NCBI GenBank assembly: GCA_031549115.1
Contig: JAVBQJ010000071.1
Location: forward strand, 7,451-71,450
Source: Victivallaceae bacterium
GTDB lineage: Bacteria; Verrucomicrobiota; Lentisphaeria; Victivallales; Victivallaceae
Length of the DNA: 64,000 nt
Reading direction: 5' to 3'
Shown piece by piece: positions 2,176 through 59,924 of the stretch. The first letter of the stretch is position 1. Each line of letters starts with the position of its first letter. Under the pieces are notes generated by a model. It saw nothing but the letters and a program-made list of their open reading frames with translations. It had not been told where the DNA came from and did not search any database. The position numbers and the translations under genes are program-made.

Positions 2176-2203
2176 TTGACTTTTCGCTTTTTTGGCCTAT
2201 AAT
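2176..2203 (+). promoter_or_regulatory. Sigma70-like promoter of pseudopilin cassette 1 (TTGACT, 16-nt spacer, TATAAT)
   Basis: Consensus -35 TTGACT at 2176..2181 and perfect -10 TATAAT at 2198..2203. The same arrangement recurs upstream of the paralogous cassette at 6281..6308. Confidence 0.6.
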
Positions 2204-2236: not shown

Positions 2237-2256
2237 TATTTGAGTACGATATCAAA
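2237..2256 (+). promoter_or_regulatory. 20-bp palindromic operator-like site ATTTGAgtacgatatCAAAT in the 5' leader
   Basis: Inverted half-sites ATTTGA/TCAAAT. The identical 20-mer is at 6346..6365 at the same position relative to the paralogous promoter. Confidence 0.55.
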
Positions 2257-2283
2257 TTTTGCAAAAGAGAAGGGACGGCGAAA

Positions 2284-2952
2284 ATGAAAAGAAGGAATCG
2301 ATTTACGCTCATAGAGCTCCTGGTGGTGATTGCGATTATTGCCATTCTTGCCAGTATGTTGCTGCCGGCGCTGAGCAAAGCGCGCGCTGCGGCGCAGAAC
2401 ATCAAATGTGTGGGCAGCATCAAGCAGCTGGCACTGGCGCAAACGTTGTATGCCGGCGACAACAATGACTATTTCTTTCCGGCCTATGACGACGACGATA
2501 AGATATGGTGGATGGACTGGGCGTTGTTGCCGTATGTTTCGTGGGACTTTGTCTTCAAGGGCTGCCCCAATATGTCGCCGTTCAATGAGGGTTATATCTC
2601 CTACGGGTATAACTTCCTGCTGCTTTTCGGATCTTCCGGCAACCGGAGCACCCCCTGTAAAGTCACCGCGGTGGAGAATCCCTCGGAGACCATAATATTG
2701 CAGGACGCCAATCGCGATCTGCCCAACGGAAACTATATCGGCATCGCCCCCTGGGCGGCGGATCTGCAGAAAATGGGCGGCACCTATGCCTCCATCGCGC
2801 ACGACGGCGGAGCGAAATTGAATTGCGCCTGGGTGGACGGCCATGCGTCGACCGAACAAAACAGCAAACTCTGGACTGGCCAAGCCCCCACCGGAAACAC
2901 TTGGTACTATGAGCGCCGGAAAGGTAAAAACCTGGACAGCGGCGAATGGTAA
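2284..2952 (+). CDS. DUF1559 family prepilin-type N-terminal cleavage/methylation domain protein (type II secretion pseudopilin-like)
   Basis: N-terminus [33 protein letters not shown] (prepilin peptidase motif plus hydrophobic helix). C-terminal ...VDGHASTE motif typical of DUF1559. Ribosome-binding site gaaggga precedes the ATG. Confidence 0.85.
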
Positions 2953-3019
2953 GTCGGGTTGCAAAGCCGGAGCAATAAAGCGATTTTTTTTTTGGACAGT
3001 CGGAGCAAGAGGAGTATCT

Positions 3020-5971
3020 ATGGTTTGGGGTAAGGGGAGATGGAGTGCAATTGCTTTATTGACAATGGTTTTGTCGTTTTTTGGCAATGCTGCTGATAAT
3101 CTGGGCTGGCAGGATCAATTCGACGTCATCGACGCCGATCGCTGGTGCATTGTGCCGGCTTCGGCGGAGATTGTGCCGACGGATAATCTGAGCGCCGCCA
3201 ACCGGGCGTTGAAAATCACGCCGCCGTACAGCCAGCATTACATGGCGACGGGCGATAAGTTTTCCGACGGCGTGTGCGAGATTCGTTTCAAAGCGAAGAG
3301 CACGAACGCCGGCGAATTCATGTACTATATCGGTTTTCATAATTACGAACCGTGGATCAAAGCGTTGTGCTGGGTTGTCATCCACAACGACACGGTGATG
3401 TTTCAGGTCAAAGCGCCGGACGGCACCAACCGCTCGGAAAAGCTGGCGGATCTGACCGACGGCTGGCATACGTTGAAATTGCAGTACGCGCCGGGCGCGA
3501 TCACTGCGGATTGGGACGGGGAGGCGACAATAACGTACGACGATCCGGCGCTGTACTCGCCCGAAGCGATGCCCTTTTTTATCAGTGCCAACACCGAAAG
3601 AATTGATTTTGTCCCGCAGGAGGGTCCCCCGGATACCGCCGAATTGATGGTCGATTACCTGAAAGTTTCCGGCGGCAAGCCGGAGCCGGTCATGACGGCC
3701 CGGGAACTGACCGGGCCGGAAGCCCAATTGGTCGGCGCCGATCCCGTGGTGAAGGCGGTACTGCCGGGCGGCGGCTACGCGATCGCGCTGGATGGCGGCA
3801 TGCACTGGAAATCGATCGTCGTGGACGGGACCGAAATGCTGGACCCGGACTTCTTCGCTCCGGTCTTCGGCGCCCGGGTCGACGGCAAAAACATTTATTC
3901 CCACCAGTTTGAAACCACCGGAGTGGAGCGCTCCGGCGACGCTTTCACGGTGCATTCGCTCCATGCCGCCACTGCGACCGCCGCGACGCTGACCGGCAAG
4001 GTCGAGGCGGGGCGGTTCCTGCTGGGACTGCAATTGGGCAACGGCGCCGGGGAGGAACGCCGGCTGCAGCCGATCTTCCCGATCGTCGGCAGCTTCGCCG
4101 TAAACGGCGACTTCGCCGGGACGGAATACTTCTTCCCGTGGCGCAGCGGGATAATGGGTGACAACACCGCCAGCTTTTTCACCGAATACGGCGGTCTGGG
4201 CTGGATGCAGCTGATGTTCGTCCGGCATCCGGGCGTGGAACGCGGGGTGTATTTTTACCCCGAGGACGCCGGCGGGAGCTTCAAAGGCATGTCGATGAGC
4301 AAGAGGCTGGCCGGGGTCAACCCCGAGGTCTATCACTCCGAGACGGTGCACCCCGAAGAATTCGCGCTGGAGGATATACTCGAAGACCGCACCGGCATGG
4401 TGATGAACTATTACTATCGGACGAACCATGTCGCCCCCGGCGGCACGGTGCAGTTGCCGGACACCGTTTTCAGCGGTTGGAACGGCGGCTGGAAGGAGCC
4501 GATGCGCATCTATGCCGACTGGATGAAGTCGCACATGAGCCCGGTGGAGACGCCGCGTCACTTCCGTGACAGCTTCGCCTGGCAGAACTGGCATCCGCCG
4601 ACCTATTACGACAAGGAGGAGAAGCGGTATATCGGACATGAGCGTCTGGCCGGCGGCGAGGATGCGCTGCAGGCGGCCTTCTGGGATGACTATGTCGAAT
4701 ATCCGCCCAATGCGGTGGTTACCGTTTTGCAGCGGTTTCAGCCCGGCGACTTCGAGGTGAACCGTTCCCGCGGCGGCGTGGAAGCGTTTGCGGCTGAAAT
4801 CGCCAAAATCCGGGCTATCGGAACCCGTTTCTCGATCTACATCGACCACCGCTTCTGCTGGCGTGAAACCAAAACAGCGCAAAAGCACGGTGAAGCGTGG
4901 GCGGTCCGGGATCCGCAAGGCAAACCGTATGGCTACTCCAATGATAACGACCTGTATATGATGTGTTTCTACGATCAGGACAAGTGGGTCGAATATATGG
5001 CGGACACCTGTCATCGGCTGATTCGCGATACCGGCATGGACGCGATTTACCTGGACGAACTCGGTATTGCGTTCCCGTGCTACAGCAAAAGTCACGATCA
5101 TTACCGGAACGGGATGTACCCCACCGATCCGGTGGGGCTGGGCAAGTCGATGACCGTGGTCCGCAATCGCATGAAGGAGGCCAATCCGGAAGCGGCCTTG
5201 ATGACCGAACATGCCGGAAGCGACTACCTGACCCAGTTCTACGACGGCTCCTGGAATCAGACCTTTTACGAAGGGGCATTCCCATTTACCGAAAAATATT
5301 ATGACGATCTGAAGCTGTGCTATTTCCGTTTCCTGTTCCCGCATTTCAAGCTGTCGGAGTGGGGCGGCAGCCGCGATCATATCCGCCGCAGCTTCTTCAA
5401 CGGCATGGGCTGGGACATGGGGGGAGGGCCCGAAACCGACTTATCCCGTACCCTGGCGCGGGTGCTGAAGGAGAACGGCGACGCGATTGCCACCCTCTAT
5501 CCGGAACCGATCGTCCCGACCGGCAACCCCGGTCTCTTGGCGAACCGTTTCGACGCGCCCGGAAAAGTGGTTTATACGTATTACAATAACTCCGAGGCGC
5601 CGCTGACCGCCGGAGTCACCGAAGCCGCGCCGTTTGCCGGGCACTATGTCGAGCTGCGCCACGATGTCATGCTGGATTCCCCGGCCGTCGCCGTTCCCGC
5701 CGGCGAAGTCGCCGCGGTCGCTCTTTACCCGGAATTGCTGAAGTTGGAAGCCGACGGCAACAGCCGCCGGATCACCGCACCGGCGGCGCCGAATCAGGAG
5801 CTCGTGATCTGCGAAGGGGTTGACGATTCGCACTTCCTGCCGCCGCGCGGCACCTGGACACGGATCGACTTCACTACTGGAGAAGCCGCGTATGCGCCGC
5901 GCGACACCAACGTCAAGTTGATCGTCAAGCTGCTCCGCGACGGTTACCTCGTCGACGAATTGGTGCGTTAA
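3020..5971 (+). CDS. Large secreted protein (983 aa): N-terminal lectin/LamG-like (DUF1080-like) beta-sandwich plus central/C-terminal TIM-barrel-like putative glycosidase domain; cassette copy 1
   Basis: The ORF track gives 2843..5971, but that start overlaps the upstream gene. The internal ATG at 3020 has ribosome-binding site ggagcaagaggag and a signal peptide (WSAIALLTMVLSFFGNA). About 65% identity to the paralog at 7159. Motifs IYLDELGIAFPCY and MTEHAGSDY suggest acidic catalytic residues. Family unknown to me. Confidence 0.75.
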   Translation: MVWGKGRWSAIALLTMVLSFFGNAADNLGWQDQFDVIDADRWCIVPASAEIVPTDNLSAANRALKITPPYSQHYMATGDKFSDGVCEIRFKAKSTNAGEFMYYIGFHNYEPWIKALCWVVIHNDTVMFQVKAPDGTNRSEKLADLTDGWHTLKLQYAPGAITADWDGEATITYDDPALYSPEAMPFFISANTERIDFVPQEGPPDTAELMVDYLKVSGGKPEPVMTARELTGPEAQLVGADPVVKAVLPGGGYAIALDGGMHWKSIVVDGTEMLDPDFFAPVFGARVDGKNIYSHQFETTGVERSGDAFTVHSLHAATATAATLTGKVEAGRFLLGLQLGNGAGEERRLQPIFPIVGSFAVNGDFAGTEYFFPWRSGIMGDNTASFFTEYGGLGWMQLMFVRHPGVERGVYFYPEDAGGSFKGMSMSKRLAGVNPEVYHSETVHPEEFALEDILEDRTGMVMNYYYRTNHVAPGGTVQLPDTVFSGWNGGWKEPMRIYADWMKSHMSPVETPRHFRDSFAWQNWHPPTYYDKEEKRYIGHERLAGGEDALQAAFWDDYVEYPPNAVVTVLQRFQPGDFEVNRSRGGVEAFAAEIAKIRAIGTRFSIYIDHRFCWRETKTAQKHGEAWAVRDPQGKPYGYSNDNDLYMMCFYDQDKWVEYMADTCHRLIRDTGMDAIYLDELGIAFPCYSKSHDHYRNGMYPTDPVGLGKSMTVVRNRMKEANPEAALMTEHAGSDYLTQFYDGSWNQTFYEGAFPFTEKYYDDLKLCYFRFLFPHFKLSEWGGSRDHIRRSFFNGMGWDMGGGPETDLSRTLARVLKENGDAIATLYPEPIVPTGNPGLLANRFDAPGKVVYTYYNNSEAPLTAGVTEAAPFAGHYVELRHDVMLDSPAVAVPAGEVAAVALYPELLKLEADGNSRRITAPAAPNQELVICEGVDDSHFLPPRGTWTRIDFTTGEAAYAPRDTNVKLIVKLLRDGYLVDELVR

Positions 5972-5974
5972 AAG

Positions 5975-6290
5975 GCGGTTGTCGAGGAGAAAATGGGGAG
6001 GGCTTCTTGCCCTCCACGCCACCCCGGCAGGGTGCCCCGCGTTACGCTCGCTGACGCGAGCTTACTTTTCGCCCTTGCGCTTCGCGCTGCGTTTACTGCC
6101 GACAATATATGTCCGGTCCCCCGGCTACCCCCTTCAGGACCTACGCCTGTTGTCGGGTTTACCGCCTCCGGCAGGGGACTCCGCATTTCGACATGGTGCA
6201 ATGATTTGCGGTTTGCCGGGATGGAACCGCAAACCGGGAGCGGAATGTCATATAGATTTTGCTTTTTTTCTCCGGCGCTATTGACTTTTT
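5975..6290. repeat. GC-rich hairpin-dense intergenic element related to the repeat at 23949-24480 and 50207-50700
   Basis: Shares the module ccacgccaccccggcagggtgcc with 11860-11890 and, as a reverse complement, with 24440-24460. Several stem-loops are present (gggagggcttcttgccctcc; cggtttgccgggatggaaccgcaaaccg). The six-frame ORFs here (5968..6402 -, 5979..6284 +) have no ribosome-binding site and proline/arginine-rich composition, and are probably spurious. Confidence 0.5.
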
Positions 6291-6308
6291 GTTTTTTTTG
6301 TCTATAAT
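6281..6308 (+). promoter_or_regulatory. Sigma70-like promoter of pseudopilin cassette 2 (TTGACT, 16-nt spacer, TATAAT)
   Basis: Same -35/-10 and spacing as 2176..2203. Confidence 0.6.
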
Positions 6309-6345
6309 TATAAGCAGCTTGTTTCTTCTTTTTTTTTAGAAAAAT

Positions 6346-6365
6346 ATTTGAGTACGATATCAAAT
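6346..6365 (+). promoter_or_regulatory. Second copy of the 20-bp palindrome ATTTGAgtacgatatCAAAT
   Basis: Identical to 2237..2256 and similarly placed downstream of the -10. Confidence 0.55.
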
Positions 6366-6432
6366 TTAAGAAATAGTAACGATTGACGGAAAATACGGAC
6401 AAGAGCCAACATCAAACGAAAGGGATGATGAA

Positions 6433-7128
6433 ATGAAAAAAGGGAGTCGTTTTACACTCATAGAGCTTCTGGTGGTGATTGCGATCATCGCTATTCTCGC
6501 CAGCATGCTGCTGCCGGCGTTGAGCAAGGCGCGCGCCTCCGCGCAGAGCATCAAATGCCTGGGCAATAACAAGCAGATGGCGCTGGGGGCGTTGATGTAT
6601 GCCACCGACAACAATGAGTGGGTGCTGACCGGAGACCGTTCGAAAATGTTGGACGGCAAGGCATGGCCGGAGCAGCTGCGCCGGTACCTGGGCAGCCAGA
6701 AAATATTCGAATGCCCGTCGTACAGCAACGACCGCTATTCCGATACCGGATGGACATTCGACGACGGCGAATTGTACCAGGGTGCATACGGCATGAATGC
6801 CCGGATGGGGGCGGAGGACAATAATCCGCATACGGAAATTCACAAGCTGCCGGGGCCGACCGGCAATACCTTTCCGGTTTTCCTGGAAATCAACGGACCG
6901 TGCGGCCTGGCGTTGATTCACCTGTCCCGCGGCGAATCGGCGGCCAACCTGTGGGGCAAATATACCGACCGGCACAAAAACGGCGGCAACATCGTCTATT
7001 CGGACGGCAGCGCCAGATGGACCAGCTACGATGAATATTCTTCGTTGGTGGATAAGTCGAAAACCGCCGCCGGCGGCAAGATTCCGGGAGACTGGGGTGA
7101 CGCACTGGCGTTCATGCTCGGATACTGA
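6433..7128 (+). CDS. DUF1559 family prepilin-like protein (paralog of 2284..2952)
   Basis: N-terminus [38 protein letters not shown]-terminal ...YSDGSARW motif. Ribosome-binding site aagggatga precedes the ATG. Confidence 0.85.
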
Positions 7129-7158
7129 CCCGGATACGAAAAAAGGATTTGCACAAGA

Positions 7159-10100
7159 ATGAGTAAGTTACGTTTCTGGTACGGACTCCTGGTTTTGCTC
7201 ATCGGAGCCGGTGTGTATGCCGCTTCCGAAAGTCAGAGCTGGCAGGAGAATTTCGACTCCATCGACACGAAGCGCTGGAAGGTGATTCCGGCTTCGGCGG
7301 AGATCGTACCGACCGATCAATTGAGCGCCGCCAACCGGGCGCTGAAGCTGAATCCGGCGTTGGGGCAGCACTATATGACCACGTCGGACAAGTTCATCGA
7401 CGGCAGTTGTGAAATCCGCTTCAAGGCGAAGCGGCCGTCGTCGGGCGAACTGTTCTATTATATCGGCTTCCACGCCTATGAGCCGTGGGTGAAGGCGTTG
7501 TGCTGGATCATGATTCAGGGCGATACCGTCAGCTTCGGCGTCAAAACCCCGGACGGCGTGAGCCGGTCGGAAAAGCTGGCGGACCTGACCGACGGCTGGC
7601 ATACGCTCAAATTGCATTACTCATCCGATGCGATCTCTGCCGAATGGGATGGCGAGAAGACGCTGACCTACGACGACCCGGCGCTGTATTCCAGCGAGCC
7701 GATGCCGTTTTTCATCGGCGCGTATACCGTCGAAGGGACCAAAGATCCCGCCGAACTGATGGTCGATTATCTGAAAGTCACCGGCGGCAAGCCGGCGGCG
7801 ATAATGGCCCCGCGGACATTGACCGATGCCGAAAAAATGGTGATCGGCGTCGATTCCGTGGTGGCGGCGCAGTTGCCAGGCGAACGCTATGCGATCGCGC
7901 TGGACGGTGGCATGCACTGGCAATCGATTGACGCGGACGGTACCGAAATGCTGGCGCCGGACTTCTTCGCGCCGGTGTTCGGAGCGCGGATCGATGGGAA
8001 AAATGTCTTTTCGCACCAGTTCGAAGTCACCGGAGTGAAGCGCTCCGGCGACGCCTTCGCGGTCGAGCTCCTGTACCCGGAATCCGCGACTGCTGCGACG
8101 GTTTCGGGCGCGGTGAAGGACGGCCGCTTCCGGCTGGATCTGCAATTGCGCAATGACGACAAGCAGGAGCATCGGCTGCAGCCGGTGTTCCCGGTGGTCG
8201 GCAGCCTGGCGGTCGGCGGCGACTTCGCCGGAACCGAATACTTCTTTCCGTGGCGCGGCGGCGTCCTGGGGGACAATACCGCGTATTTTTCGACCGAGTA
8301 CGGCGGGCTGGGGTGGACGCAGTTGATGTTCGTGCTGGATCCCGCCTCCGGCCGCGGGCTGTACTTTTATCCGGAGGACGCCTCCGGCCGCTTCAAAGGC
8401 ATGTCGATGATCAAACAATTGATCGATACCAATGTCGACGTGTACCATACCGAATCGGTGATCGCCGAAGAGGTGCCGACGCTGGATATGCTGGAAAACC
8501 GTACCGGGTTGGTGATGAACTATTACTACCGGACCGAAACGGTCGCGCCTGGTGTCGCGGTGGAGGTGCCGGAAACTGTGTTCGGCAGCTGGCGGGGCGA
8601 CTGGAAAGAGCCGATGCGGCTCTATGCCGACTGGATGAAGTCGCAGATGCAGCCGGTGGAGGTGCCGCGCCAGTTCCGCGACAGCTTCACCTGGGGCAAC
8701 TGGCATCCGCCGGCCTATTACGACAAGCAGGCGCAGCGTTACGTCGGCCGCGAACGGCTGGCCGGCGGCGAAGACGCGCTGCAATGGGCCTTCTGGGATG
8801 ACTATGTCGAATATCCGGCCGATGCGAAAATCCCGTCGCTGCAGCGCTACCAGCTCGGCGACTTCGAGGTGAACCGCTCCCGTGGCGGGATGGAAACTTT
8901 CGCGGCCGAAATTGCCCGGATCCGTGAGGTCGGAACCCGCTTCTCGGTCTACATCGACCACCGTTTCTGCTGGCGCGAAACCAAGACCGCGCAGAAGTAC
9001 GCCGACGCGTGGGCGGTCAAGGACCCGAACGGCAAGCCGTACGGTTATACCTCCGATGAAGACTTGTACATGATGTGCTTCTACGATGCGGACAAGTGGG
9101 TGAACTATATGGCCGAAACCTGCCATGGGCTGATTCGCGACACCGGCATGGATACGATTTACCTGGACGAGCTCGGCATCGCGTTTCCCTGCTACAACAA
9201 GCTGCACAGCCATTATCAGGCGGGGGAGTATCCGACCGATCCGGTCGGCCTGGGGAAGGCGATGACGCTGGTACGCAATCGCATGAAAGAGGCCAATCCG
9301 GAAGCGGCGCTGATGACCGAACACGCCGGCAGCGACTATCTGACCCAGTTCTACGACGGTTCGTGGGACCAGACCTTTTACATGCATGCGTTCCCGTTCA
9401 CCGAGAAGTATTATGACGACCAGAAGATCTGCTACTTCCGTTTCATGTTCCCCAACTTCAAGTTGTCGGAATGGGGCGAGAGCCGTGATCACATCCGGCG
9501 CAGCTTCTTCAACGGCATGGGGTGGGACATGGGGGTGACGGACACCGATCTGTCCCGCACTCTGGCGCGGGTGCTGAAGGAGAACGGCGACGCGATTGCC
9601 ACCCTCCATCCGGAACCGATCGTCCCGACCGGCAACCCCGGTCTCTTGGCGAACCGTTTCGACGCCCCCGGAAAAGTGGTTTACACCTACTATAATAACT
9701 CCGAGGCGCCGCTGACCGCCGGAGTCTCCGAAGCCGCGCCGTTTGCCGGGCACTATGTCGAGCTGCGCCACGATGTCATGCTGGATTCCCCGGCCGTCGC
9801 CGTTCCCGCCGGTGAAGTCGCCGCGGTCGCTCTTTATCCGGAATTGCTGAAGCTGGAAGCCGACGGCAACAGCCGCCGGATCACCGCACCGGCGGCGCCG
9901 AATCAGGAGCTCGTAATCTGCGAAGGCGTTGACGATTCGCATTTTCTGCCGCCGCGCGGCACCTGGACGCGGATCGACTTCGCCTCCGGAGAAGCCGCGT
10001 ATGCGCCGCGCGACACCAACGCCAAGTTGATCGTCAAGCTGCTCCGCGACGGCTATCTCGTCGACGAAGTGGGGGGTGGACGGCAAAGACTCGGCGGGCC

Positions 10101-10317
10101 CGGCCGCACTCCCATCCGGTTGGGAGTGCGGACGGGCCCTTGCATTTTACCCGATATGGTGTTATCTTTTTATTTCATAAGCAATGAAACACCAAGGATA
10201 CGGGAGATCTTTTCATGGAGTTTACTCTTTGGAGTGAGGCGGGCGCGGCAATCGGTTCGGTGGCGGCGAACGGCACGGTGGGGCGCGATGTGCTCGACCG
10301 CGCCGGGGCGGTGTTGA
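7159..10317 (+). CDS. Large secreted lectin-like/TIM-barrel protein, cassette copy 2; annotated ORF carries an ~80-aa C-terminal read-through extension (probable lost stop)
   Basis: Signal peptide LLVLLIGAGVYAASE. Collinear with 3020..5971 up to ...LLRDGYLVDE at 10070. Copy 1 then has a stop, but copy 2 continues through a G-run (gtggggggtgg) and a terminator-like hairpin (10097..10139), and overlaps the next gene. The functional end is probably near 10070-10080. Confidence 0.7.
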   Translation: MSKLRFWYGLLVLLIGAGVYAASESQSWQENFDSIDTKRWKVIPASAEIVPTDQLSAANRALKLNPALGQHYMTTSDKFIDGSCEIRFKAKRPSSGELFYYIGFHAYEPWVKALCWIMIQGDTVSFGVKTPDGVSRSEKLADLTDGWHTLKLHYSSDAISAEWDGEKTLTYDDPALYSSEPMPFFIGAYTVEGTKDPAELMVDYLKVTGGKPAAIMAPRTLTDAEKMVIGVDSVVAAQLPGERYAIALDGGMHWQSIDADGTEMLAPDFFAPVFGARIDGKNVFSHQFEVTGVKRSGDAFAVELLYPESATAATVSGAVKDGRFRLDLQLRNDDKQEHRLQPVFPVVGSLAVGGDFAGTEYFFPWRGGVLGDNTAYFSTEYGGLGWTQLMFVLDPASGRGLYFYPEDASGRFKGMSMIKQLIDTNVDVYHTESVIAEEVPTLDMLENRTGLVMNYYYRTETVAPGVAVEVPETVFGSWRGDWKEPMRLYADWMKSQMQPVEVPRQFRDSFTWGNWHPPAYYDKQAQRYVGRERLAGGEDALQWAFWDDYVEYPADAKIPSLQRYQLGDFEVNRSRGGMETFAAEIARIREVGTRFSVYIDHRFCWRETKTAQKYADAWAVKDPNGKPYGYTSDEDLYMMCFYDADKWVNYMAETCHGLIRDTGMDTIYLDELGIAFPCYNKLHSHYQAGEYPTDPVGLGKAMTLVRNRMKEANPEAALMTEHAGSDYLTQFYDGSWDQTFYMHAFPFTEKYYDDQKICYFRFMFPNFKLSEWGESRDHIRRSFFNGMGWDMGVTDTDLSRTLARVLKENGDAIATLHPEPIVPTGNPGLLANRFDAPGKVVYTYYNNSEAPLTAGVSEAAPFAGHYVELRHDVMLDSPAVAVPAGEVAAVALYPELLKLEADGNSRRITAPAAPNQELVICEGVDDSHFLPPRGTWTRIDFASGEAAYAPRDTNAKLIVKLLRDGYLVDEVGGGRQRLGGPGRTPIRLGVRTGPCILPDMVLSFYFISNETPRIREIFSWSLLFGVRRARQSVRWRRTARWGAMCSTAPGRC
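10097..10139 (+). terminator. Terminator-like hairpin downstream of the conserved end of cassette gene 2
   Basis: gggcccggccgcactccca-tccggt-tgggagtgcggacgggccc (about a 17-bp stem) followed by ttgcatttta. Confidence 0.5.
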
Positions 10318-11831
10318 CGATCAAAGGTTTTGTCCCCTATATCGACGCGGCCGGCTATTGGCACAGCGATCTGGAACGGTTGGCGCCAATGGAGCTGCCG
10401 TGGGTGATCGAGTTCACTTGCGGCGCCAACCGCAGTTTCCCATTCTGGTGTCTGTATAACCAGTCCTATCGCAACTGCGCGGCGGTCGGGTTGACCGATT
10501 GCTTCGACGACTGCCGGGTGCGGGCGAAAATGAATCAGGAAGCCGGTGGCTACGAGCTTTCGTTTGCGCTGTCGGTGGCGCCGGAAACTGAAGCGTTCCG
10601 GGTCTGGGTCGACGCACGGCCGGTTCCGTTTCCGCAGGCGGTGGCCGGGTTTCGGCACGAACTGCTGCCGGCGGCGCCGAAGTACCCCGAAGGGGCGTGG
10701 AATCCGGTTTATTGCACCTGGTACGCGGTGCATACGGTGTTGTCGGAGGCGTATCTGGAGGAGAATGCCCGGATTGCCCGGAAGCTAGGCTTCGGTACCT
10801 TTATCGTCGACGACGGCTGGTGTCTGGACGACAGCAAGCGGGTGACGCCGGCGACCCTGCCGACCTGGTACGAATGGATCGGCGACTGGAAGCTGTCGGA
10901 GAAGAAATTGCCGCAGATGAAGCGGACCATCGCCAGAGCGCAGGCCGACGGCTGGAATTATATGTTCTGGGTGGCGCCGTTTTTTGTCGGCGACCGCAGC
11001 GAACTGGCGCGGCGGGTATCCGATTATCTGACCGATTCGCACGAAGGACAGCGCTTGCTCGATCCGCAGGATCCGGAGATGGCGCAGTTCACGATGGAGA
11101 GCATCCTGAAGGTTTTCCGCGACCTCGAGCTCGACGGGTTGAAAATCGACTTCATCGACATCATCCAGCCGGATGAAAAGCGGCCGCGCAGCCGGGCGGC
11201 GTTCCGCTATGCCGAAGAGCTGGTGCGGCGGATCCGGGAGGTCAAGCCGGAGGCGCTGATCGAATTCCGGCAGAATTACGGCACGCCGGTGATGGCGGGG
11301 CTGGCGACGGCGTTCCGCGCCGGCGACGTGCCGTTCGATTATGTCGAAAACTTCGAACGCTGCGTGCAACTGCGGCTGCTGTTGGGCGACGGCGTGCCGG
11401 TGCATGCCGATCCGGTGTATTTCCGCAACGACGAAACTCCGGTGAACGTGGCGCGGCACATGATGGCGGCGATGGCGGGAGTGCCGATGCTGTCGATGGA
11501 TCTGCGGGAATTGACGGCGGAGCAGTTGACGATCATCGGTAATTATCTGGCGCTCTACCGGAAGCAACAGACGGTGTTGAATTTCGGACATTGGGAGTTC
11601 CGGTTCAGCTTCGGGCATACCCCGTGGGCGCGCTGTAGTCATGAAAGTGGCACGGTGGTATTCGTCTGGGAGCGGGAGTTTCTGGCGCCGGCGCTCGAGG
11701 GCGTGACCGGGTCGGTGACGGTGCTGAACCTGAGCGACGCAGCGCTGTCCATGCCCGGAATGACCGGCTTCGACGCCGCCGGGAAAGCTACCGGTGATGT
11801 CGCCCCCGCCGGCGGGCGCCTGGAGAACTGA
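10215..11831 (+). CDS. Alpha-galactosidase-like glycoside hydrolase (clan GH-D, GH36/GH27-like)
   Basis: Motifs FIVDDGWCLDD and GLKIDFID resemble the DDGW and KxD catalytic regions of GH27/GH36 enzymes. Ribosome-binding site gggagatctttTCATG. 538 aa. Family-level call only. Confidence 0.6.
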   Translation: MEFTLWSEAGAAIGSVAANGTVGRDVLDRAGAVLTIKGFVPYIDAAGYWHSDLERLAPMELPWVIEFTCGANRSFPFWCLYNQSYRNCAAVGLTDCFDDCRVRAKMNQEAGGYELSFALSVAPETEAFRVWVDARPVPFPQAVAGFRHELLPAAPKYPEGAWNPVYCTWYAVHTVLSEAYLEENARIARKLGFGTFIVDDGWCLDDSKRVTPATLPTWYEWIGDWKLSEKKLPQMKRTIARAQADGWNYMFWVAPFFVGDRSELARRVSDYLTDSHEGQRLLDPQDPEMAQFTMESILKVFRDLELDGLKIDFIDIIQPDEKRPRSRAAFRYAEELVRRIREVKPEALIEFRQNYGTPVMAGLATAFRAGDVPFDYVENFERCVQLRLLLGDGVPVHADPVYFRNDETPVNVARHMMAAMAGVPMLSMDLRELTAEQLTIIGNYLALYRKQQTVLNFGHWEFRFSFGHTPWARCSHESGTVVFVWEREFLAPALEGVTGSVTVLNLSDAALSMPGMTGFDAAGKATGDVAPAGGRLEN

Positions 11832-18047: not shown

Positions 18048-18950
18048 CTATTTGGTTTTGCCGCGCCATTGCGCCGGGCTGGCGCCGTAGTAACGCCGGA
18101 AAGCGCGGGACAGCGCGAAGCCGCAGCTGAAGCCGGTTTTGCGGGCGATGGTATCGAGTTTGCAATCGGAATATTGCAGCATCCGCGCGGCGGTGTTCAT
18201 CCGGATCTCCTGCAGCATGGCGCCTGGGGATTTGCCGTAAATGCGGCGCACGGCGAGAAAGAGATTGGGGACCGACATGCCGGCCCTGCGGGCGAATTCC
18301 CGGAGATTCCAGGGGCGGTCCGGGTTTTCTTCGACCTCCTTGAACAGCATGCGGATACGGATCTGCTGCTCCGGGTCGCGGCCGAAGTTGGACAATTCCC
18401 GGTGAAGATACATCACCGCGGCGCGACACAGCAAATGCTGCATCACCGCGTCGCCGCTGCCGTGGATCGCGGTTTCGCTGTACAAGAGCTCCAATACCGA
18501 TCCGATATTTTCCGCCCATTCGGCCGGGCGCACGAGGCAATCCTGCGGCAGCCGTTTCTTCCAGCAGGCCGCGGCCGGGATCAGGTGAAACCACAGTATC
18601 GCCGCCGCCTCTTCGGCATGGTAGCAGTGCGGTGTTTCCGCTTGCAAGTAGATGACATTTCCCGCTCCAACCGTGTTGACCCCGGCGATGCCGCTGTCGC
18701 AGATCAATGCTCCCCGGGTCACATATAAAATGACATGGTACGGGAAATTGAAACGGTTGATCCGGTATCCGTCCGTCAGCTCGCTGATGCCGGCGACGTC
18801 GATCTCCCGGTCCGGCCACAGCCGGTCCGTCTCCTCTCCGAAAAAGATGAAACGTTCCCGGCACCCTACCGGAATGCATTGTACCTCGCGGGCATTTTTC
18901 ATGGTGACTTCCATATCCTTTATGATAACTGAAAAATCCCCGGTTGTCAA
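18048..18950 (-). CDS. AraC family transcriptional regulator (cupin-like sensor plus C-terminal AraC helix-turn-helix)
   Basis: C-terminal helix-turn-helix region LREFARRAGMSVPNLFLAVRRIYGKSPGAMLQEIRMNTAARML...LDTIARKTGFSCGFALSRAFRRYYGASP. Start is uncertain (alternatives at 18911 or 18902). Confidence 0.75.
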   Translation of the reverse strand: MTTGDFSVIIKDMEVTMKNAREVQCIPVGCRERFIFFGEETDRLWPDREIDVAGISELTDGYRINRFNFPYHVILYVTRGALICDSGIAGVNTVGAGNVIYLQAETPHCYHAEEAAAILWFHLIPAAACWKKRLPQDCLVRPAEWAENIGSVLELLYSETAIHGSGDAVMQHLLCRAAVMYLHRELSNFGRDPEQQIRIRMLFKEVEENPDRPWNLREFARRAGMSVPNLFLAVRRIYGKSPGAMLQEIRMNTAARMLQYSDCKLDTIARKTGFSCGFALSRAFRRYYGASPAQWRGKTK

Positions 18951-18978
18951 ATCGAAAGTTATGCTTTTCTCGATTTGA
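18947..18978. promoter_or_regulatory. Inverted repeat TCAAATCGA-N14-TCGATTTGA in the AraC/pseudopilin divergent region
   Basis: Perfect 9-bp arms. Half-sites TCAAAT/ATTTGA are the same hexamers as in the 20-bp palindrome upstream of the other two pseudopilin genes. Confidence 0.45.
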
Positions 18979-19101
18979 ACACATGGAATATCGATATTTT
19001 ATAATTTCGGTTATGCTATTTAGAAAATACGCTATTTGTGAAAACGTATTTCCGCACTATACTTATAAGCAACAACTCACACACTGAAAGGAGTCGATGT
19101 C

Positions 19102-19818
19102 ATGAACCGGAAAAATGGGAAAGCTTCCGATTCTCGGAACCGCGGCCGGAGTTTTACTTTGATAGAACTCCTGGTCGTGATCGCGATCATTGCGATTCTC
19201 GCCAGCATGCTGCTGCCGGCCCTGTCCAAGGCGCGGGCGGCGGCGCAGAATATCAAATGTGTCAACAACTTCAAGCAGATCGGCCTGGCGGCGGCGATGT
19301 ACCAGGGCGACAACAAAGACACGCTGGCGACCGGAAGGAATGGATTCTATGGCGGCACCGGCGAATGGGCCGGGCGTTTTCAGGGTTGGTGGCTGGATCT
19401 GGCGGTGACCGGATATCTGCCGGACGATTACGCCTATGACTGGTTCAGTGCCATCAACACGTTGGGCCACAAAGCCCTGGCTTGCCCGGTCATGGTCAAC
19501 AGCGGCGAGCGCTACAACTACGGCATCAACGAACTGCTGACCGGAGAATACTGCGGGTCGTTCCTGTATGGACGTACAAACTACGGAATGGCGACCGGCT
19601 TCGAAAATCCGTCGGGGCGCGCTTATCTGCTGGAGCCGACCGCCCGCGGCGACGGCATGTACATTTATACCACATTGGACACCGGCCGGGCGGTGGAGCG
19701 CGACCGTCACGGCAACTCCAGCAATGTGCTCTTCCTCGACGGCCATGCGGAGAGCATCCGTAAGGACGCGTTGAAAGATAGCCGCATCGAATTCCCCTGG
19801 AACGAAGCCACCGAATAA
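19102..19818 (+). CDS. DUF1559 family prepilin-like protein
   Basis: [41 protein letters not shown]-terminal [14 protein letters not shown] (the DUF1559 LFxDGHV motif). Ribosome-binding site gaaaggagtcgatgtcATG. Confidence 0.85.
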
Positions 19819-19822
19819 CCGG

Positions 19823-21760
19823 ATGAATTGCCTGATTATGGAAGAGCATACTTTGATCCCGCGCCCGGAATATCCGCGTCCGCGTTTCGTCCGCCACCTG
19901 CCGTGGCAAAATCTCAATGGCCGCTGGCGCTTCGCCTTCGATCCCGGCAAAAGCGCCGCCGCCCGGGGGCTGGCCCGGAATCCCGAGCTTTACGACCGGG
20001 AAATTCTGGTGCCGTTCTGCCCGGAGAGCCGGTGTTCCACCATCGAATGCACCGACTTCATCGAAGCCTGCGCCTATTGCCGCGAATTCGAGATTCCGGC
20101 CTCCTGGGCGGAATACCGGATTCTGTTACACTTCGACGCGGTGGATTACCGCTGCCGGGTCTATGTGGACGGCGTCGAAGTCGGCGGCCATGCCGGCGGC
20201 GGCACCGGTTTCGAGTTCGAACTGGATATCGTTCCGGGCAAACACCTGCTGGCGGTGCTGGTCGCCGATGAGGTGCGTTCGGGGCGGCAGGGGGCGGGCA
20301 AACAATGCGCCTCCTATGCTTCCTTCGGATGCGACTACACCCGGGTCACCGGCATCTGGCGCACGGTCTGGCTCGAAACGGTCGCCGACGGCGCGCTCAG
20401 AAGCTGCGGGATTGTCCCCAATATCGATACCGGATGCGTGCTGCTGACGCCGGAATATTACCGCGCCCGTTCCACCGACCGGCTGCAGGCGGCGGTGCTG
20501 GACGGTGGCGTGGTCGTCGCCGAGGCGGAGTACGCGGTGGCGGCGGGAATGCCGCTGTCCATGGCAATTCCGGCTCCGGTGAAGTTGTGGAGTCCGGAGT
20601 CGCCGTTCCGCTATGAACTGCGGCTGCGAATCGAGCGTGACGGCGCCGTCGTCGACGAGGTGTCCGGCTATTTCGGCATGCGCAAAATCCATTGCGAAAA
20701 CGGCGTGTTCCATCTCAACAACCGGCCGTTTTTCGCCCGGCTGGTGCTGGATCAGGGGTATGATCCGGAGGGCCTCTGGACGGCGCCCTCCGATGCGGCT
20801 TTCGAGGATATGATCCGGAAAGCCAAAGCGCTCGGCTTCAACGGCGCCCGGCTGCACCAGAAGTTGTTCGAAGACCGCTATCTGGATTGGGCCGACCGGC
20901 TCGGCTTCGTGGTCTGGAGTGAATATCCGAGCTGGGGGCTGGATTTGCACGCCGCCGAAGCGCGGGAAAACTTTCTGCGCGAATGGCGCGAGGCGGTGGC
21001 GGAGCGGGTGAATCATCCGTCGGTGATCGCGTGGGTGCCGTTCAACGAAACCTTTCTCTTTCCCACTCCCGAGGGCAAGATGCGGGCGTTTCCGGATCCG
21101 GAGGCGCTGGCGGCATACCGGAACTTCATCACCGAAGTCTACGATCTGACCCGGCAGCTGGATCCGAGTCGCCCGGTGTGCGACGCGAGCGGCTGGTATC
21201 ATGTCAAAACCGACTTGTGGGCGGTGCACCTGTACCGCCCCGACGCGGCCGCGCTGCGTACCGCCTTGCGGGATGACGCCCCCTTTGTGATGGTGCCGGA
21301 ATACGAAGCGCCGTACGGCGGCCAGCCGTTTTTCGTCGACGAATGGGGCGGCTTCCGCTTCGTCGCCGATCCGGCGCGGCAATCGGCCTCCAATGCCTGG
21401 GGGTACGGCACCGATCCGGAGACGCGGGAGGAGCTGCTCGCCAAAATCGCCGAACAGCTTGATGTCCTGTTGGAAACGCCGGGACTTCAGGGCTATTGTT
21501 ATACCCAGTTGACCGATATTGAGCAGGAGGAAAACGGACTCCTGACTCCCGAACGCGAACCGAAGGCGCCGTTTGCCGACTTTTACCGGCTGTTCAGCCG
21601 GCAACCGAAAGATTTTTGCTATGAAACGAATGCCGCTTCTGATTTTCATGATTCTGATTTTGCATGCCGCCATCGGCGGGACCGAGCCGATGATTCCGCG
21701 TCTGGACTGGGAGCCGCGCTCCGATTGGGTGAGCGTCAAAACGCCGAAAACCTGGCATAA
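19823..21760 (+). CDS. Glycoside hydrolase family 2-like protein (beta-galactosidase/beta-mannosidase/beta-glucuronidase family)
   Basis: N-terminal sugar-binding jelly-roll. Motifs NGARLHQKLF and IAWVPFNE resemble the GH2 TIM-barrel acid/base region. No signal peptide. The last ~50 aa look non-homologous and overlap the next gene by 140 bp, so the true C-terminus is uncertain. Confidence 0.7.
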   Translation: MNCLIMEEHTLIPRPEYPRPRFVRHLPWQNLNGRWRFAFDPGKSAAARGLARNPELYDREILVPFCPESRCSTIECTDFIEACAYCREFEIPASWAEYRILLHFDAVDYRCRVYVDGVEVGGHAGGGTGFEFELDIVPGKHLLAVLVADEVRSGRQGAGKQCASYASFGCDYTRVTGIWRTVWLETVADGALRSCGIVPNIDTGCVLLTPEYYRARSTDRLQAAVLDGGVVVAEAEYAVAAGMPLSMAIPAPVKLWSPESPFRYELRLRIERDGAVVDEVSGYFGMRKIHCENGVFHLNNRPFFARLVLDQGYDPEGLWTAPSDAAFEDMIRKAKALGFNGARLHQKLFEDRYLDWADRLGFVVWSEYPSWGLDLHAAEARENFLREWREAVAERVNHPSVIAWVPFNETFLFPTPEGKMRAFPDPEALAAYRNFITEVYDLTRQLDPSRPVCDASGWYHVKTDLWAVHLYRPDAAALRTALRDDAPFVMVPEYEAPYGGQPFFVDEWGGFRFVADPARQSASNAWGYGTDPETREELLAKIAEQLDVLLETPGLQGYCYTQLTDIEQEENGLLTPEREPKAPFADFYRLFSRQPKDFCYETNAASDFHDSDFACRHRRDRADDSASGLGAALRLGERQNAENLA

Positions 21761-23948
21761 CCTGATCGCCGCCGGTGACGGTGTTGCCGACGATACCGCC
21801 GGCTTGCAGATGACGATCGCCATGGCGGCGCCGCAGGGGGGCACCGTTTACCTGCCGCCGGGGCGCTACCGGATTACCGATACGCTGCTGGTCGGGACGC
21901 TCCAGGAAAGCTCTGCCACGCGCCCGGAAGGTTTTTCGCTGATCGGCCACGGCCGCGATACCGTAATCGTCTGGGACGGTCCCGACGATGTGCCGATGGT
22001 GCGGTTGCTCGGAATCAGTGTGTCGCGGATCGTCGGAGTGACCTTCGACGCCGGCAACCGGGCGTCGAGCGTGCTGGAAATGGGGGGACCCGGTTTTCAG
22101 GCGCACAATCTGTTCCGGCATTGCGCGTTTTTGAACGCGAAGTTCGCCGGGATCGATACCGGGCGCAAGCGTATGAACACGGCGTGCACCGAGCAACGGA
22201 TCGACAACTGCCTGTTCGTCAATTGCGGGCGCGGCGTCAGCCTCGGCGACTTCAACGATTACGACTGCGTGATCGAGGGGAGCGAATTCCGCGACTGCGA
22301 TTACGGCGTGTGGACGTTCAAAGGGAACTTCTATTGCCGCGACAGCCACTTCGAACGCAGCCGCGAGGCGGACTTCCGGATCGAATCGGAACACACCAGC
22401 ACCATCCGGCGCTGCACCTCGACGGGCTCCAACCGCTTTCTGATCCAGCGTTCGCCACACTGTGGTACGGTAATTCAGGATTGCCGGGTGGCCGATTGGA
22501 AAGCCGCCGACGGCGCGATCCTGCAGAATATCGTCCCGGCGATGATTTTCGACAGTGTTTTCTCCGGCGCCGGACCGGTGATCCGCTTCATTCACACCGA
22601 CAGCGAGTCGTTGGTCGGCTGCAATAAAGGGGAGAATTCCAAGTACTTCAAGTTGATTTCCAGCGGCAACCGGATTGAAAACGCGCGTCCGTATCAGGCG
22701 GAGGCGGAGGTGCGGGTCTACGATATCCCGGTGACCGGTGATATGCCGGATTCCGGCCTCTCTGCGGCCACTTCGTTCCTGAAGACCCGCGCGGTTCACG
22801 GCGTCTGGAGTCCGGAAGCGCGCACCGCGGCAATTCCGGGAAAAATCTTCGACGTCAAGCGCGATTTCGGCGCCAAAGGCGGCGAGTACGACGACACCGA
22901 GGCGTTCCGCCAGGCGATCGCCGTCGCGAAAGCACACGGCAACGGTGCATTCGTCTACATGCCGCCGGGGCATTACACGGTGCGCGAAACCCTGAAGCTG
23001 GACGGCGACAACTATTACTTCGGCGGCAGCGGCGTCCGGTCGATCCTGTCGTGGTACGGTGCGGAAAACGGCACGCTGCTGCATGTGGATGCGCCGAAGC
23101 GGCTGGGGCTGGAGGGCTTCGAAACCATGCGGCTGGGCGGTCGCAAGGACGGCATCGACATCCTCCATACCGGAGGCGGCTCGGAGGAGTCGTTCACGAC
23201 CTACGACACGGTCCGGGTGTTCGGTTTCCTGACGCCGCAGCCGCTGGTGCGGGGGCTGCGTTTCCGCAATCTCGGCGCCAACGACCGGGTGGTGTCGAAA
23301 GGAACCTTCGGCAATTTGCACTTCATCGATTCGCAGGCGGCGGAAATCCTGTTCAACAACCATTACGAAGGCGTGATATTGGTCGAGGGCAAAAATCCGG
23401 AACGCACCGGTCTATTGGCATTTCAGTTCGCGCTGCTGGAGCTGTGCGATCCGTGTCTGTGGATCAAGGACAACAATTCGCTGGTGATGACCGACTTTTA
23501 CAATGAGCAGAGTACGTCGCTGTACCGCTTCGAGGGCAATGGCTCGCCGGAGCGCGGGCGGATTTCGCTCGGCTCGATCAAGGTGGAAGCGGTGCCGCGT
23601 TACGTCGAGGGATTCCAGGGCGAGATCACGCTCGGGACACCGCAGTATTACCAAAACAGCCTTCATGGACGCAGCCGCTTCGACAACGACGAAGCCTCCG
23701 ACGTCGATTACCTGGAGTTGGGCGGCTATTACTTCGTCCACAGTCTGGATTGGAACCGCCACCCCGGATTCCGGGCGCGCTTCCTCGGGACGGGAGGCGG
23801 GCCCGACAAAGATACCACGGCAGAGGAATTTCTGCGGCGCTATACGGATTCCATCGATCCCGAAGCATTGGAGCAGGCGGCGCGTTTCTTCCACGACATG
23901 CGCCGGGTCGGGGAATTGGATCTGCGTCTGAATTTCCCCGGTATCTGA
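21621..23948 (+). CDS. Secreted tandem right-handed beta-helix protein (two pectate-lyase-superfamily domains; GH55-like)
   Basis: Signal peptide MKRMPLLIFMILILHAAIGG. Two occurrences of the GDGxxDDTxA motif (AAGDGVADDTAGLQ; DFGAKGGEYDDTEAFRQAI), each followed by beta-helix-like repeats. A two-beta-helix architecture is characteristic of GH55 exo-beta-1,3-glucanases. The ORF track start at 21573 is upstream of the signal peptide. Confidence 0.65.
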   Translation: MKRMPLLIFMILILHAAIGGTEPMIPRLDWEPRSDWVSVKTPKTWHNLIAAGDGVADDTAGLQMTIAMAAPQGGTVYLPPGRYRITDTLLVGTLQESSATRPEGFSLIGHGRDTVIVWDGPDDVPMVRLLGISVSRIVGVTFDAGNRASSVLEMGGPGFQAHNLFRHCAFLNAKFAGIDTGRKRMNTACTEQRIDNCLFVNCGRGVSLGDFNDYDCVIEGSEFRDCDYGVWTFKGNFYCRDSHFERSREADFRIESEHTSTIRRCTSTGSNRFLIQRSPHCGTVIQDCRVADWKAADGAILQNIVPAMIFDSVFSGAGPVIRFIHTDSESLVGCNKGENSKYFKLISSGNRIENARPYQAEAEVRVYDIPVTGDMPDSGLSAATSFLKTRAVHGVWSPEARTAAIPGKIFDVKRDFGAKGGEYDDTEAFRQAIAVAKAHGNGAFVYMPPGHYTVRETLKLDGDNYYFGGSGVRSILSWYGAENGTLLHVDAPKRLGLEGFETMRLGGRKDGIDILHTGGGSEESFTTYDTVRVFGFLTPQPLVRGLRFRNLGANDRVVSKGTFGNLHFIDSQAAEILFNNHYEGVILVEGKNPERTGLLAFQFALLELCDPCLWIKDNNSLVMTDFYNEQSTSLYRFEGNGSPERGRISLGSIKVEAVPRYVEGFQGEITLGTPQYYQNSLHGRSRFDNDEASDVDYLELGGYYFVHSLDWNRHPGFRARFLGTGGGPDKDTTAEEFLRRYTDSIDPEALEQAARFFHDMRRVGELDLRLNFPGI

Positions 23949-42212: not shown

Positions 42213-42443
42213 AAAAAAAATAGAGCCGCGAAGCGGCGGTTTTGCACTCCGTCATACGGAGGCGCGGTCCAGCGGCGAATACGCTGGTCGATCCCAGAAG
42301 GGATCGAAATCCAGGGAAGGATCGCCGGGAGGCGATCCGGAGCCACCCGAGGAAGCGATGGTATAGATTTGACCGGACGCGTGAGCAACGGTCAAATCTA
42401 TACACGGAGCGTACGAGGCGCCGCACCGGCGGCGAATAATCCC
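42213..42443 (+). repeat. Family B repeat, copy 3
   Basis: aaaaaaaaTAGAGCCGCgaagcGGCGGTtTTGCACTCCGTCATACGGAGGCGCGGTCCAGCggcgaatacgctggtcgat...gccacccgaggaagcgatggtatagatttgaccg...cggtcaaatctatacacggagcgtacgaggcgccgc. Lies between the convergent MFS and DUF4838-like genes. Confidence 0.6.
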
Positions 42444-44727: not shown

Positions 44728-45483
44728 TCAGTTGGTGAAGCTCTGCGGCAACCGGTTCATGCCCTGATCGAAGTAGACCGCGGCCGTGATCCAGTTCCAG
44801 TCCGCATCCGGACGCCATTTGCCACTCTTGGGCAGCGTTTTCAACTCTTCGCCGGAGATGACGCCGACGTGGCCGTCAATAAACGCGATGTTGATTTTGT
44901 TGTTGTGTGCCGCATAAAAGCTCGGGTGGGTCCACCAGTAAATAATACCGCTGCCGCGGAAACCTCCGCCCATCGGTTGCAGCGCATCGGTTACCATCCA
45001 ATAGCCGGAAGGGTTTTCCGGGGCAGATGCGGCGATACTATGCATCTGGACGTTTCCTCCGGGACTTCCCTGGGTGAAGTTTTTATCAAGGGCATTGGTC
45101 GCATACTGGTCATAATATTTGTCCGGTTTGGCAGGGACGCTGACCTGGTTGGGGCAACGGACCAACGTACTGTCCATGTCTGCCGGCAGGTAATTCAATG
45201 TCAGACTGCCGGCGACCCAGGTGTTGATCTTGTTTTCCCACATGTCGTTGCCGTAAATCTGCATCCAGTAGTATTCGGGACCACCGATGTAGGTCAGAAT
45301 CTGATCATTGTTGTCGACGCTGTACAACATGAATCCCTGCATGATCTGCTTCTGGTTGTTGACGCATTTGATCGCCTGCGCCGCCGCCCGCGCTTTGGAC
45401 AGCGCCGGCAGCAGCATGCTGGCTAGGATTGCAATAATTGCAATCACGACGAGCAGTTCGATAAGTGTGAAAGTTTTTTTCAT
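44728..45483 (-). CDS. DUF1559 family prepilin-like protein
   Basis: [42 protein letters not shown]-terminal [14 protein letters not shown]. Confidence 0.85.
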
Positions 45484-58857: not shown

Positions 58858-58936
58858 CTTGTACTATTATAGCACTGAAAAGCAGAAAAATCCATCATAT
58901 TGTAAAAAATTCCATGTTTTTTTGCGTTTTTGGCTT

Positions 58937-58949: not shown

Positions 58950-58979
58950 GCAACAATTTGTCGAACAGGAGGACGGTTC

Positions 58980-59912: not shown

Positions 59913-59924
59913 GGATTTGAGAAA

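Follow-up and report, generated by a model that had tools for sequence, protein, structure and literature searches.

The stretch analysed here, a 64-kb window (G+C content about 60%) from contig JAVBQJ010000071.1 of a Victivallaceae bacterium, carries pilin-like genes that each stand directly 5′ of a gene for a large glycosidase-like protein. A six-frame scan of the window for the pilin N-terminal motif located exactly four such genes, which we call A, B, C and D. An earlier, sequence-only reading had placed them at 2284, 6433 and 19102 on the plus strand and at 44728 on the minus strand, and the scan bears out all four positions. The pilin-like genes and the genes that follow them, with glycoside hydrolase abbreviated to GH, are as follows:

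2284–2952, plus strand: pilin-like gene A, 222 amino acids (aa); prepilin-type N terminus, C-terminal H-X11-DG motif, Arg at position −1
3020–5971, plus strand: predicted exported DUF6259 glycosidase-like protein A, 983 aa, with signal peptide; 67 bp 3′ of pilin A
6433–7128, plus strand: pilin-like gene B, 231 aa; H-X9-DG motif, Arg at −1
7159–10317, plus strand: predicted exported DUF6259 glycosidase-like protein B, 1052 aa, with signal peptide; 30 bp 3′ of pilin B
10311–11831, plus strand: Melibiase-like (GH27/36-type) gene, the third of module B; signal peptide not obvious
19102–19818, plus strand: pilin-like gene C, 238 aa; H-X9-DG motif, Ser at −1
19823–21760, plus strand: GH2 glycosidase, 645 aa, without a signal peptide; 4 bp 3′ of pilin C
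21621–23948, plus strand: predicted exported beta-helix protein, GH55/GH28-like (PF12708/PF13229); its signal-peptide start overlaps the GH2 3′ end by 140 nt
44728–45483, minus strand: pilin-like gene D, 251 aa; H-X9-DG motif, Thr at −1
42444–44717, minus strand: predicted exported DUF4838 (GH20/GH67N-like) protein, E value 3e-69; 10 bp 3′ of pilin D

The enzyme gene always lies 3′ of the pilin gene and on the same strand, across gaps of 67, 30, 4 and 10 bp for A, B, C and D. This confirms, for all four, the earlier statement that each pilin gene sits 4–67 bp 5′ of a large glycosidase-like gene, most of them with signal peptides. A protein of at least 450 aa, our definition of a large partner, is encoded directly downstream of 4/4 pilin genes and of 11/38 other genes in the window (p = 0.012). 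The two DUF6259 enzymes, the beta-helix and DUF4838 proteins and a metallophosphatase-like protein encoded upstream of D each have an evident signal peptide; none is evident on the Melibiase-like or GH2 proteins. Both of the approximately 1000-aa DUF6259 paralogues have a glycosidase-type (beta/alpha)8 catalytic domain. Their family is rare, with 16 homologues at E ≤ 1e-20 in 5.8 billion clustered proteins, all of approximately 980–1280 aa. Sequence searches with the DUF6259 and DUF4838 proteins against the PDB gave no match.

Pilin–enzyme pairing in Lentisphaerota

Outside the window, we sampled 80 loci containing relatives of these genes, on contigs representing one genome per species, together with loci that carry precomputed annotation. 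Genes were called with a self-trained codon model, which reproduces the gene map of the window, and proteins with an N-terminal hydrophobic segment were counted as exported. In Lentisphaerota, where the downstream counts (32 pilin genes against 218 other genes) exclude the window, 22 of the 32 pilin genes are followed within 150 bp by a gene on the same strand, at a median gap of 22 bp. A large protein follows 19/32 pilin genes and 51/218 others (odds ratio 4.8, p = 8e-5), and a large protein with an N-terminal hydrophobic segment follows 15/32 and 20/218, respectively (odds ratio 8.7, p = 9e-7). The same survey found such pairing for 3/37 pilin genes in Verrucomicrobiota and 1/6 in Planctomycetota. 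The neighbourhood survey that the sequence-only reading had called for thus shows the expected enrichment in Lentisphaerota loci (odds ratio 8.7), measured against neighbouring genes rather than whole genomes, and does not show it in Verrucomicrobiota. That reading had assigned the genes to the DUF1559 proteins of the Planctomycetes–Verrucomicrobia–Chlamydiae (PVC) superphylum. On the Verrucomicrobiota and Planctomycetota counts we rejected coupling as a PVC-wide property of the family: it is seen in Lentisphaerota and not in the sampled Verrucomicrobiota or Planctomycetota loci.

The partners encoded immediately downstream in Lentisphaerota belong to many families: DUF4838 (several times), heparinase II/III-like, GH78, GH123, GH20, beta-helix, Laminin_G_3, CBM4_9/CBM9-like, sulfatase, esterase and a few unknowns. 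The picture was mixed in four additional loci for which official gene calls exist, which showed a pilin gene followed by a 3-keto-disaccharide-hydrolase-like gene, a pilin gene separated by one gene from GH42, an AraC–pilin pair separated by one gene from GH95, and three orphan pilin genes. Two tandem pilin genes precede the enzyme gene in some cassettes (L023 10001–11614, L008 9150–10801 and L092 9140–10645), and the tandem heads are 65% identical in L023 and 53% in L008. In another locus (L083 10001–12994), a pilin gene that lacks a co-directional partner adjoins an IS240-type transposase, which suggests that this cassette was broken up by rearrangement.

What lies immediately upstream of the pilin gene is also distinctive. 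In 15 of 41 Lentisphaerota cases the gene there encodes a LacI/GntR-type regulator with a sugar-binding domain, always co-directional with the pilin gene, and in five more it encodes an AraC regulator, mostly divergent. Together these account for 20/41 pilin genes, against 18/290 for the remaining genes of those loci (odds ratio 14, p = 5e-11); in Verrucomicrobiota the figure is 1/41. Because a regulator stands directly upstream in 20 of 41 cases, we take the unit of the module to be regulator, pilin and enzyme. Both arrangements occur in the window, with an AraC gene divergent from pilin C and a co-directional lacI gene in the D unit.

Full-length orthologues of pilin B, with 43–45% identity, are present in two other organisms (loci L088 and L094). 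Both loci have the order LacI, pilin, DUF6259 enzyme (38–52% identity) and lie beside a GH38 alpha-mannosidase gene. Pilin B and its DUF6259 enzyme are a conserved orthologous pair in three organisms. The proposal of a coupled module with the pilin fixed 5′ of the enzyme genes is accordingly supported by statistics from outside the window as well as by this pair.

Family and fold of the pilin-like proteins

All four proteins match PF07963 (N_methyl; 20.8–32.6 bits) and TIGR02532 (22.3–22.5 bits, cut-off 16.3). They share the hydrophobic alpha-1 segment with Phe+1 and Glu+5 that is the hallmark of the type IV pilin and type II secretion system (T2SS) pseudopilin superfamily, and both profile matches begin at Phe+1. 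The DUF1559 label given by the sequence-only reading fared less evenly. Against the 268-position PF07596 profile (gathering score 23.3), C scored 27.5 bits over profile positions 2–32 only, D scored 19.5 bits, below the cut-off, over approximately 30 N-terminal positions, and A and B gave no match; most homologues carry a precomputed PF07596 match. TIGR04294 (cut-off 19) scored 19.3 for B, 18.5 for C and 16.0 for D, and did not match A. The H-X9-DG motif is legible after the prepilin-type N terminus in B, C and D, with H-X11-DG in A, and its H, N and DG positions are at least 90% conserved among 82 homologues. Because the PF07596 matches are weak and confined to the N terminus, prepilin-type or H-X9-DG protein is the safer name. 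These proteins fall outside GspG: TIGR01710 (134 positions) scored 25.5–31.2 bits over model positions 1–59 only, against an equivalog cut-off of 88.85. The wider family is very large, with 375,204 representatives at 50% identity for E ≤ 1e-3 and 58,402 for E ≤ 1e-30. Homologues of the pilin-like genes carry the taxon names Lentisphaerae, Victivallaceae or Victivallales, as do the proteins to which the topoisomerase IV subunit B of the window is approximately 70% identical, and on these grounds we treat the source as a Victivallales-like member of Lentisphaerota. An exact-sequence look-up of pilin C returned no record.

A structure model predicts a pilin-like fold, in which a long alpha-1 helix packs on an antiparallel beta-sheet. 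The periplasmic-binding-protein fold that the Pfam name SBP_bac_10 would suggest was not supported by this model. Sequence and fold matches include GspG, PulG and EpsG, although by sequence only the alpha-1 helix is detectable against solved structures, where the approximately 170-aa head has no relative; a Foldseek search of the model against the PDB found no match. Relative to neighbouring proteins, the heads are rich in Trp (3.2% versus 1.6%), in Trp, Tyr and Phe together (14% versus 9.5%) and in Asn, Asp and Gly, a composition that is compatible with sugar binding and not specific to it.

The N-terminal helix behaves differently from the head. Phe+1, Glu+5 and the helix of approximately 24–27 residues are invariant across the four window genes, and the Lentisphaerota copies in general retain an unvarying helix with Phe+1 and Glu+5. 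We considered gene conversion as the source of the identical N termini and rejected it, since the four DNA segments differ at synonymous sites; for the same reason, the invariance of the N-terminal 27 residues points to purifying selection. The heads are also under purifying selection, with ratios of nonsynonymous to synonymous substitution (Ka/Ks) of 0.19–0.48 in tandem duplicates.

Modules A and B carry unrelated heads

Promoter-like sites lie 5′ of the pilin gene or the regulator gene, none lies between pilin and enzyme, and terminator-like hairpins follow the units. The control elements and remaining genes of the four modules are as follows:

2176–2203, plus strand: sigma-70-like promoter of module A (TTGACT, 16 nt, TATAAT), 11/12 consensus positions; homologous to the module B promoter
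2237–2259, plus strand: 23-nt partly palindromic operator-like motif TATTTGAGTACGATATCAAATTT, with an identical copy at 6345–6367; a putative operator
6038–6061, plus strand: terminator-like hairpin between modules A and B
6281–6308, plus strand: sigma-70-like promoter of module B, 11/12 consensus positions
6345–6367, plus strand: second copy of the 23-nt operator-like motif TATTTGAGTACGATATCAAATTT, identical to that at 2237–2259
18048–18950, minus strand: AraC-family regulator, divergent from pilin C
18976–19005, plus strand: promoter-like site 5′ of pilin C, 10/12 consensus positions
47844–47872, minus strand: sigma-70 promoter of the D unit with extended −10, 12/12 consensus positions
46728–47801, minus strand: LacI-family regulator, first gene of the D unit
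45527–46717, minus strand: predicted exported metallophosphatase-like protein of the D unit, with signal peptide
42225–42237, minus strand: terminator-like hairpin closing the D unit

Pilin D is the third gene of a lacI–metallophosphatase–pilin–DUF4838 unit bounded by the 12/12 promoter and the terminator-like hairpin. In module C, the signal peptide and domain start of the beta-helix protein lie 5′ of the GH2 stop codon in another frame (21621–21760). This 140-nt overlap is either real or the product of a sequence error in the GH2 3′ end.

Modules A and B permit a closer comparison. No chance matches are expected for the pair of 23-nt operator-like motifs, and the two DUF6259 enzymes are 75% identical. 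Nucleotide homology between the modules falls into two stretches. The first comprises the promoter, the operator-like motif and the N-terminal 60 codons of the pilin gene (synonymous divergence, Ks, 0.55), and the second comprises the enzyme gene from approximately codon 24 onward; homology is absent from the pilin head, the spacer and the enzyme signal peptide. Over the enzyme genes Ks is approximately 0.65 overall, and it falls to 0.1–0.2 in the last approximately 165 codons (approximately 5470–5963 and 9580–10072) against 0.6–1.1 elsewhere, which indicates a recent gene-conversion tract there. Despite the common promoter, operator-like motif and 75%-identical enzyme, pilins A and B bear unrelated heads. 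Drift in place is unlikely to have produced this difference, given flanks with Ks of 0.55–1.1 and heads of other duplicates with Ka/Ks of 0.19–0.48. Because the heads of tandem duplicates elsewhere are under such constraint, we propose that the A and B heads were exchanged, or were spared from gene conversion that was limited to the flanks. The pattern resembles the shuffling of binding modules. Pilin–enzyme pairs, as the orthologues of pilin B show, are stably inherited, and heads are also swappable between modules with the same enzyme. That unrelated heads stand beside 75%-identical enzymes makes it less likely that a pilin simply recognises the fold of its enzyme.

Two further observations concern these modules. 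The open reading frame of enzyme B bears an extra C-terminal tail of approximately 80 aa (10073–10317) that is absent from enzyme A, is modelled with low confidence (predicted local distance difference test, pLDDT, approximately 25) and overlaps the start of the Melibiase-like frame; it may be a frameshift or read-through artefact. An AGE-family gene (N-acylglucosamine/mannose 2-epimerase-like) lies at 886–2061, just 5′ of module A. The AGE-family and GH38 neighbours offer hints of a mannoside or N-glycan substrate for the DUF6259 enzymes.

Proposed function and alternatives

Our preferred reading, held tentatively, is that these modules are sugar-inducible glycan-degradation cassettes typical of Lentisphaerota, in which the pilin head would be non-catalytic and would bind glycan or hold the enzyme. 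A LacI/GntR-type or AraC regulator, a pilin-like gene and at least one carbohydrate-active enzyme, mostly exported, would form one self-contained cassette, transcribed as a single unit from a promoter 5′ of the pilin gene or the regulator gene. The pilin-like protein would sit in the cytoplasmic membrane through the invariant N-terminal helix that it has in common with type IV pilins and T2SS pseudopilins, and its variable, aromatic-rich, pilin-fold head would be displayed outside the cytoplasm. There the head may bind the target glycan, or may keep the enzyme expressed alongside it attached to the cell surface, on a common platform resembling a type IV filament. Its function would then be comparable to that of a detachable carbohydrate-binding module or of the surface glycan-binding proteins of Bacteroidota. 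We favour a non-catalytic extracytoplasmic partner because it fits the purifying selection, the stable pairs, the head exchange, the aromatic richness and the precedent of the polysaccharide-binding pilin CbPilA.

Several observations weigh against this reading. Canonical prepilin peptidases require Gly, or rarely Ala, at position −1. None of the four window proteins has either residue there (Arg in A and B, Ser in C, Thr in D), and among 45 Lentisphaerota copies Gly occurs in three and Ala in none, the position being occupied by R, K, S, T, N, D, C, I, P and others. The lack of Gly or Ala makes processing and filament assembly doubtful; either the lineage has a relaxed prepilin peptidase, or processing of these proteins has been lost. 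Among the genes scanned in the 64-kb window, none for pilus or type II secretion machinery was found, no signal peptide is evident on GH2, the immediate partner of pilin C, and approximately one-third of Lentisphaerota pilin genes lack a large downstream partner. Heads do not cluster by partner enzyme family, and those beside DUF4838 enzymes show no relationship from one genome to the next. The survey has its own limits, in that its gene caller and signal-peptide rule were home-made and the rule is crude, its loci were picked by similarity to the window pilins, and its background was neighbouring genes rather than whole genomes.

Position −1 also bears on an alternative that dispenses with processing altogether. 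The proteins could be uncleaved bitopic inner-membrane proteins whose periplasmic heads bind oligosaccharide products, or scaffold a periplasmic enzyme beside an importer. The variability of −1 in Lentisphaerota would then be understandable, as G or A is found there in 47/47 Verrucomicrobiota and 7/7 Planctomycetota copies; the leaders are very short, MFS and SSF transporter genes lie in or beside some cassettes, and the Pfam name SBP_bac_10 is in the style of solute-binding proteins. The fold is nevertheless pilin-like rather than that of a periplasmic-binding protein, and an uncleaved anchor makes it hard to explain the invariant Phe+1, Glu+5 and at least 20 following residues, which suggest continued use by pilin-handling machinery. 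We consider this alternative unlikely.

The sequence-only reading had raised secretion or pseudopilus tethering as possible roles. In one such model, the pilins would be cognate secretion adaptors, with an operon-induced, substrate-specific pseudopilin entering the T2SS pseudopilus and recruiting or pushing the neighbouring enzyme through the outer-membrane secretin. An alpha-1 helix of pilin or pseudopilin type, with GspG, PulG and EpsG among the matches, Sec signal peptides on most partners, T2SS E-type ATPase genes near such pilin genes in two related loci and the conserved pair of pilin B and DUF6259 would all suit an adaptor. Such roles face two obstacles: the −1 residue, which makes canonical processing for pseudopilus assembly doubtful, and the unrelated A and B heads on 75%-identical enzymes. 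The unrelated heads next to DUF4838 in different genomes, the GspG model scores of 25–31 against 88.85 bits and the lack of a signal peptide on GH2 count further against adaptors, which we regard as improbable.

An absence of functional coupling, with the promoter and pilin 5′ segment copied along with whatever follows during operon duplication and the pilin serving some unrelated role, would suit the joint duplication or conversion of promoter, pilin N terminus and enzyme in A and B, the enormous family (375,204 representatives) and the one-third of copies without a large downstream partner, but is made very improbable by an enrichment specific to large exported carbohydrate-active proteins and sugar regulators, by the many unrelated enzyme families involved, by the pair kept in three organisms (38–52% identity for the enzyme, 43–45% for the pilin) and by purifying selection on the heads.

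Returning to the glycan-degradation cassette, a bolder version of it would make the system a pilin-based counterpart of the polysaccharide utilisation locus, with many inducible cassettes that each have their own hypervariable head, one shared filament or T2SS machine, and a non-canonical class III signal peptide. Such a signal peptide would imply a relaxed prepilin peptidase, or a new, unprocessed use of pilin-fold proteins. We offer this version as speculative and rather doubtful.

Relation to known systems

The proteins resemble T2SS pseudopilins (GspG, PulG and EpsG) and type IV pilins in their short basic leader, their F-T-L-I-E-L N terminus with Glu+5 and their hydrophobic alpha-1 on a beta-sheet head. 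They differ in that −1 is not Gly or Ala, the head is larger (approximately 170 aa), scores are far below the GspG and PilA cut-offs, and the genes are single genes heading enzyme operons, four in 64 kb, rather than members of a gspG–K or pil cluster.

Also related are the DUF1559/H-X9-DG proteins of Planctomycetes and Verrucomicrobia (PF07596, TIGR04294), a known and annotated family whose function is described as unknown in the literature (PMC10632474, PMC4807772). They share the N terminus, the C-terminal H-X9-DG motif and a massive expansion of paralogues. The Lentisphaerota copies are shorter, however (median from Phe+1 235 aa, against approximately 254 aa in Verrucomicrobiota), and have lost Gly/Ala at −1; the window copies match PF07596 over its first approximately 30 positions only. 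Lentisphaerota copies are also tied to regulators and exported carbohydrate-active enzymes, whereas the sampled Verrucomicrobiota and Planctomycetota copies are not. The −1 change and the enzyme pairing occur in the same lineage.

Polysaccharide-binding pilins have been described elsewhere. CbPilA, from the Gram-positive fibre degrader Caldicellulosiruptor bescii, is a pilin whose production is induced by xylan and which binds both xylan and cellulose (bioRxiv 10.1101/614800), and pilin-like cellulose adhesion is known in Ruminococcus and Fibrobacter (PMC4704652). The proposed likeness is that of a polysaccharide-induced, non-catalytic pilin for glycan binding or adhesion beside loci for carbohydrate-active enzymes. 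The CbPilA type, by contrast, has one major pilin and a complete pilus locus, whereas here each cassette has a different head and no pilus machinery is nearby. Polysaccharide utilisation loci of Bacteroidota likewise comprise substrate-specific, regulator-linked cassettes with exported enzymes and a non-catalytic extracytoplasmic accessory protein. Here the accessory protein is of pilin fold, and the regulators belong to the cytoplasmic LacI, GntR and AraC types. Neither SusC/SusD nor TonB-dependent transporter genes turned up among the window genes scanned or in the related loci inspected, which sets these cassettes apart from a Bacteroidota-type locus.

We found no description of the regulator–pilin–enzyme arrangement or of the −1 change in Lentisphaerota in the full-text literature searched, which takes in few subscription journals. 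The pilin-first, regulator-linked arrangement may represent a novel organisation of polysaccharide use. It bears on how PVC bacteria without SusC/SusD capture and process polysaccharides and on the purpose of their huge families of prepilin-like paralogues, to which the cassette gives a concrete context in one phylum; Victivallis, of the same order, is a relative available in culture. From the cassette it can be predicted which sugar should induce each pilin, and modules A and B provide a natural experiment, with different heads under the same promoter and operator-like motif and beside the same enzyme. The systematic loss of Gly at −1 is also relevant to what prepilin peptidases accept as substrates. 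Should the heads bind glycans, they would constitute a very large unexplored reservoir of carbohydrate-binding domains.

Other features of the window and related loci

Some genes of the window stand apart from pilin genes. A 1046-aa protein with a signal-peptide-like N terminus and without a Pfam match is encoded at 53600–56740 without an upstream pilin gene, and a GH36 gene, on whose protein no signal peptide is evident, also lacks one. At 57949–63124, a PocR–AraC regulator gene points away from a cytoplasmic cluster for sugar metabolism (NAD-epimerase, NagB-like isomerase and ROK-family protein) that contains no pilin gene. Close to one related locus (L093 19042–20669) there is a gene for BrxL, of the BREX defence system, that is unrelated to the pairing. 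The remainder of the window consists of housekeeping and transport genes, which include those for topoisomerase IV subunits A and B, rpsB, tsf, metG, hrpA, an ABC-2 exporter and a chromate transporter.

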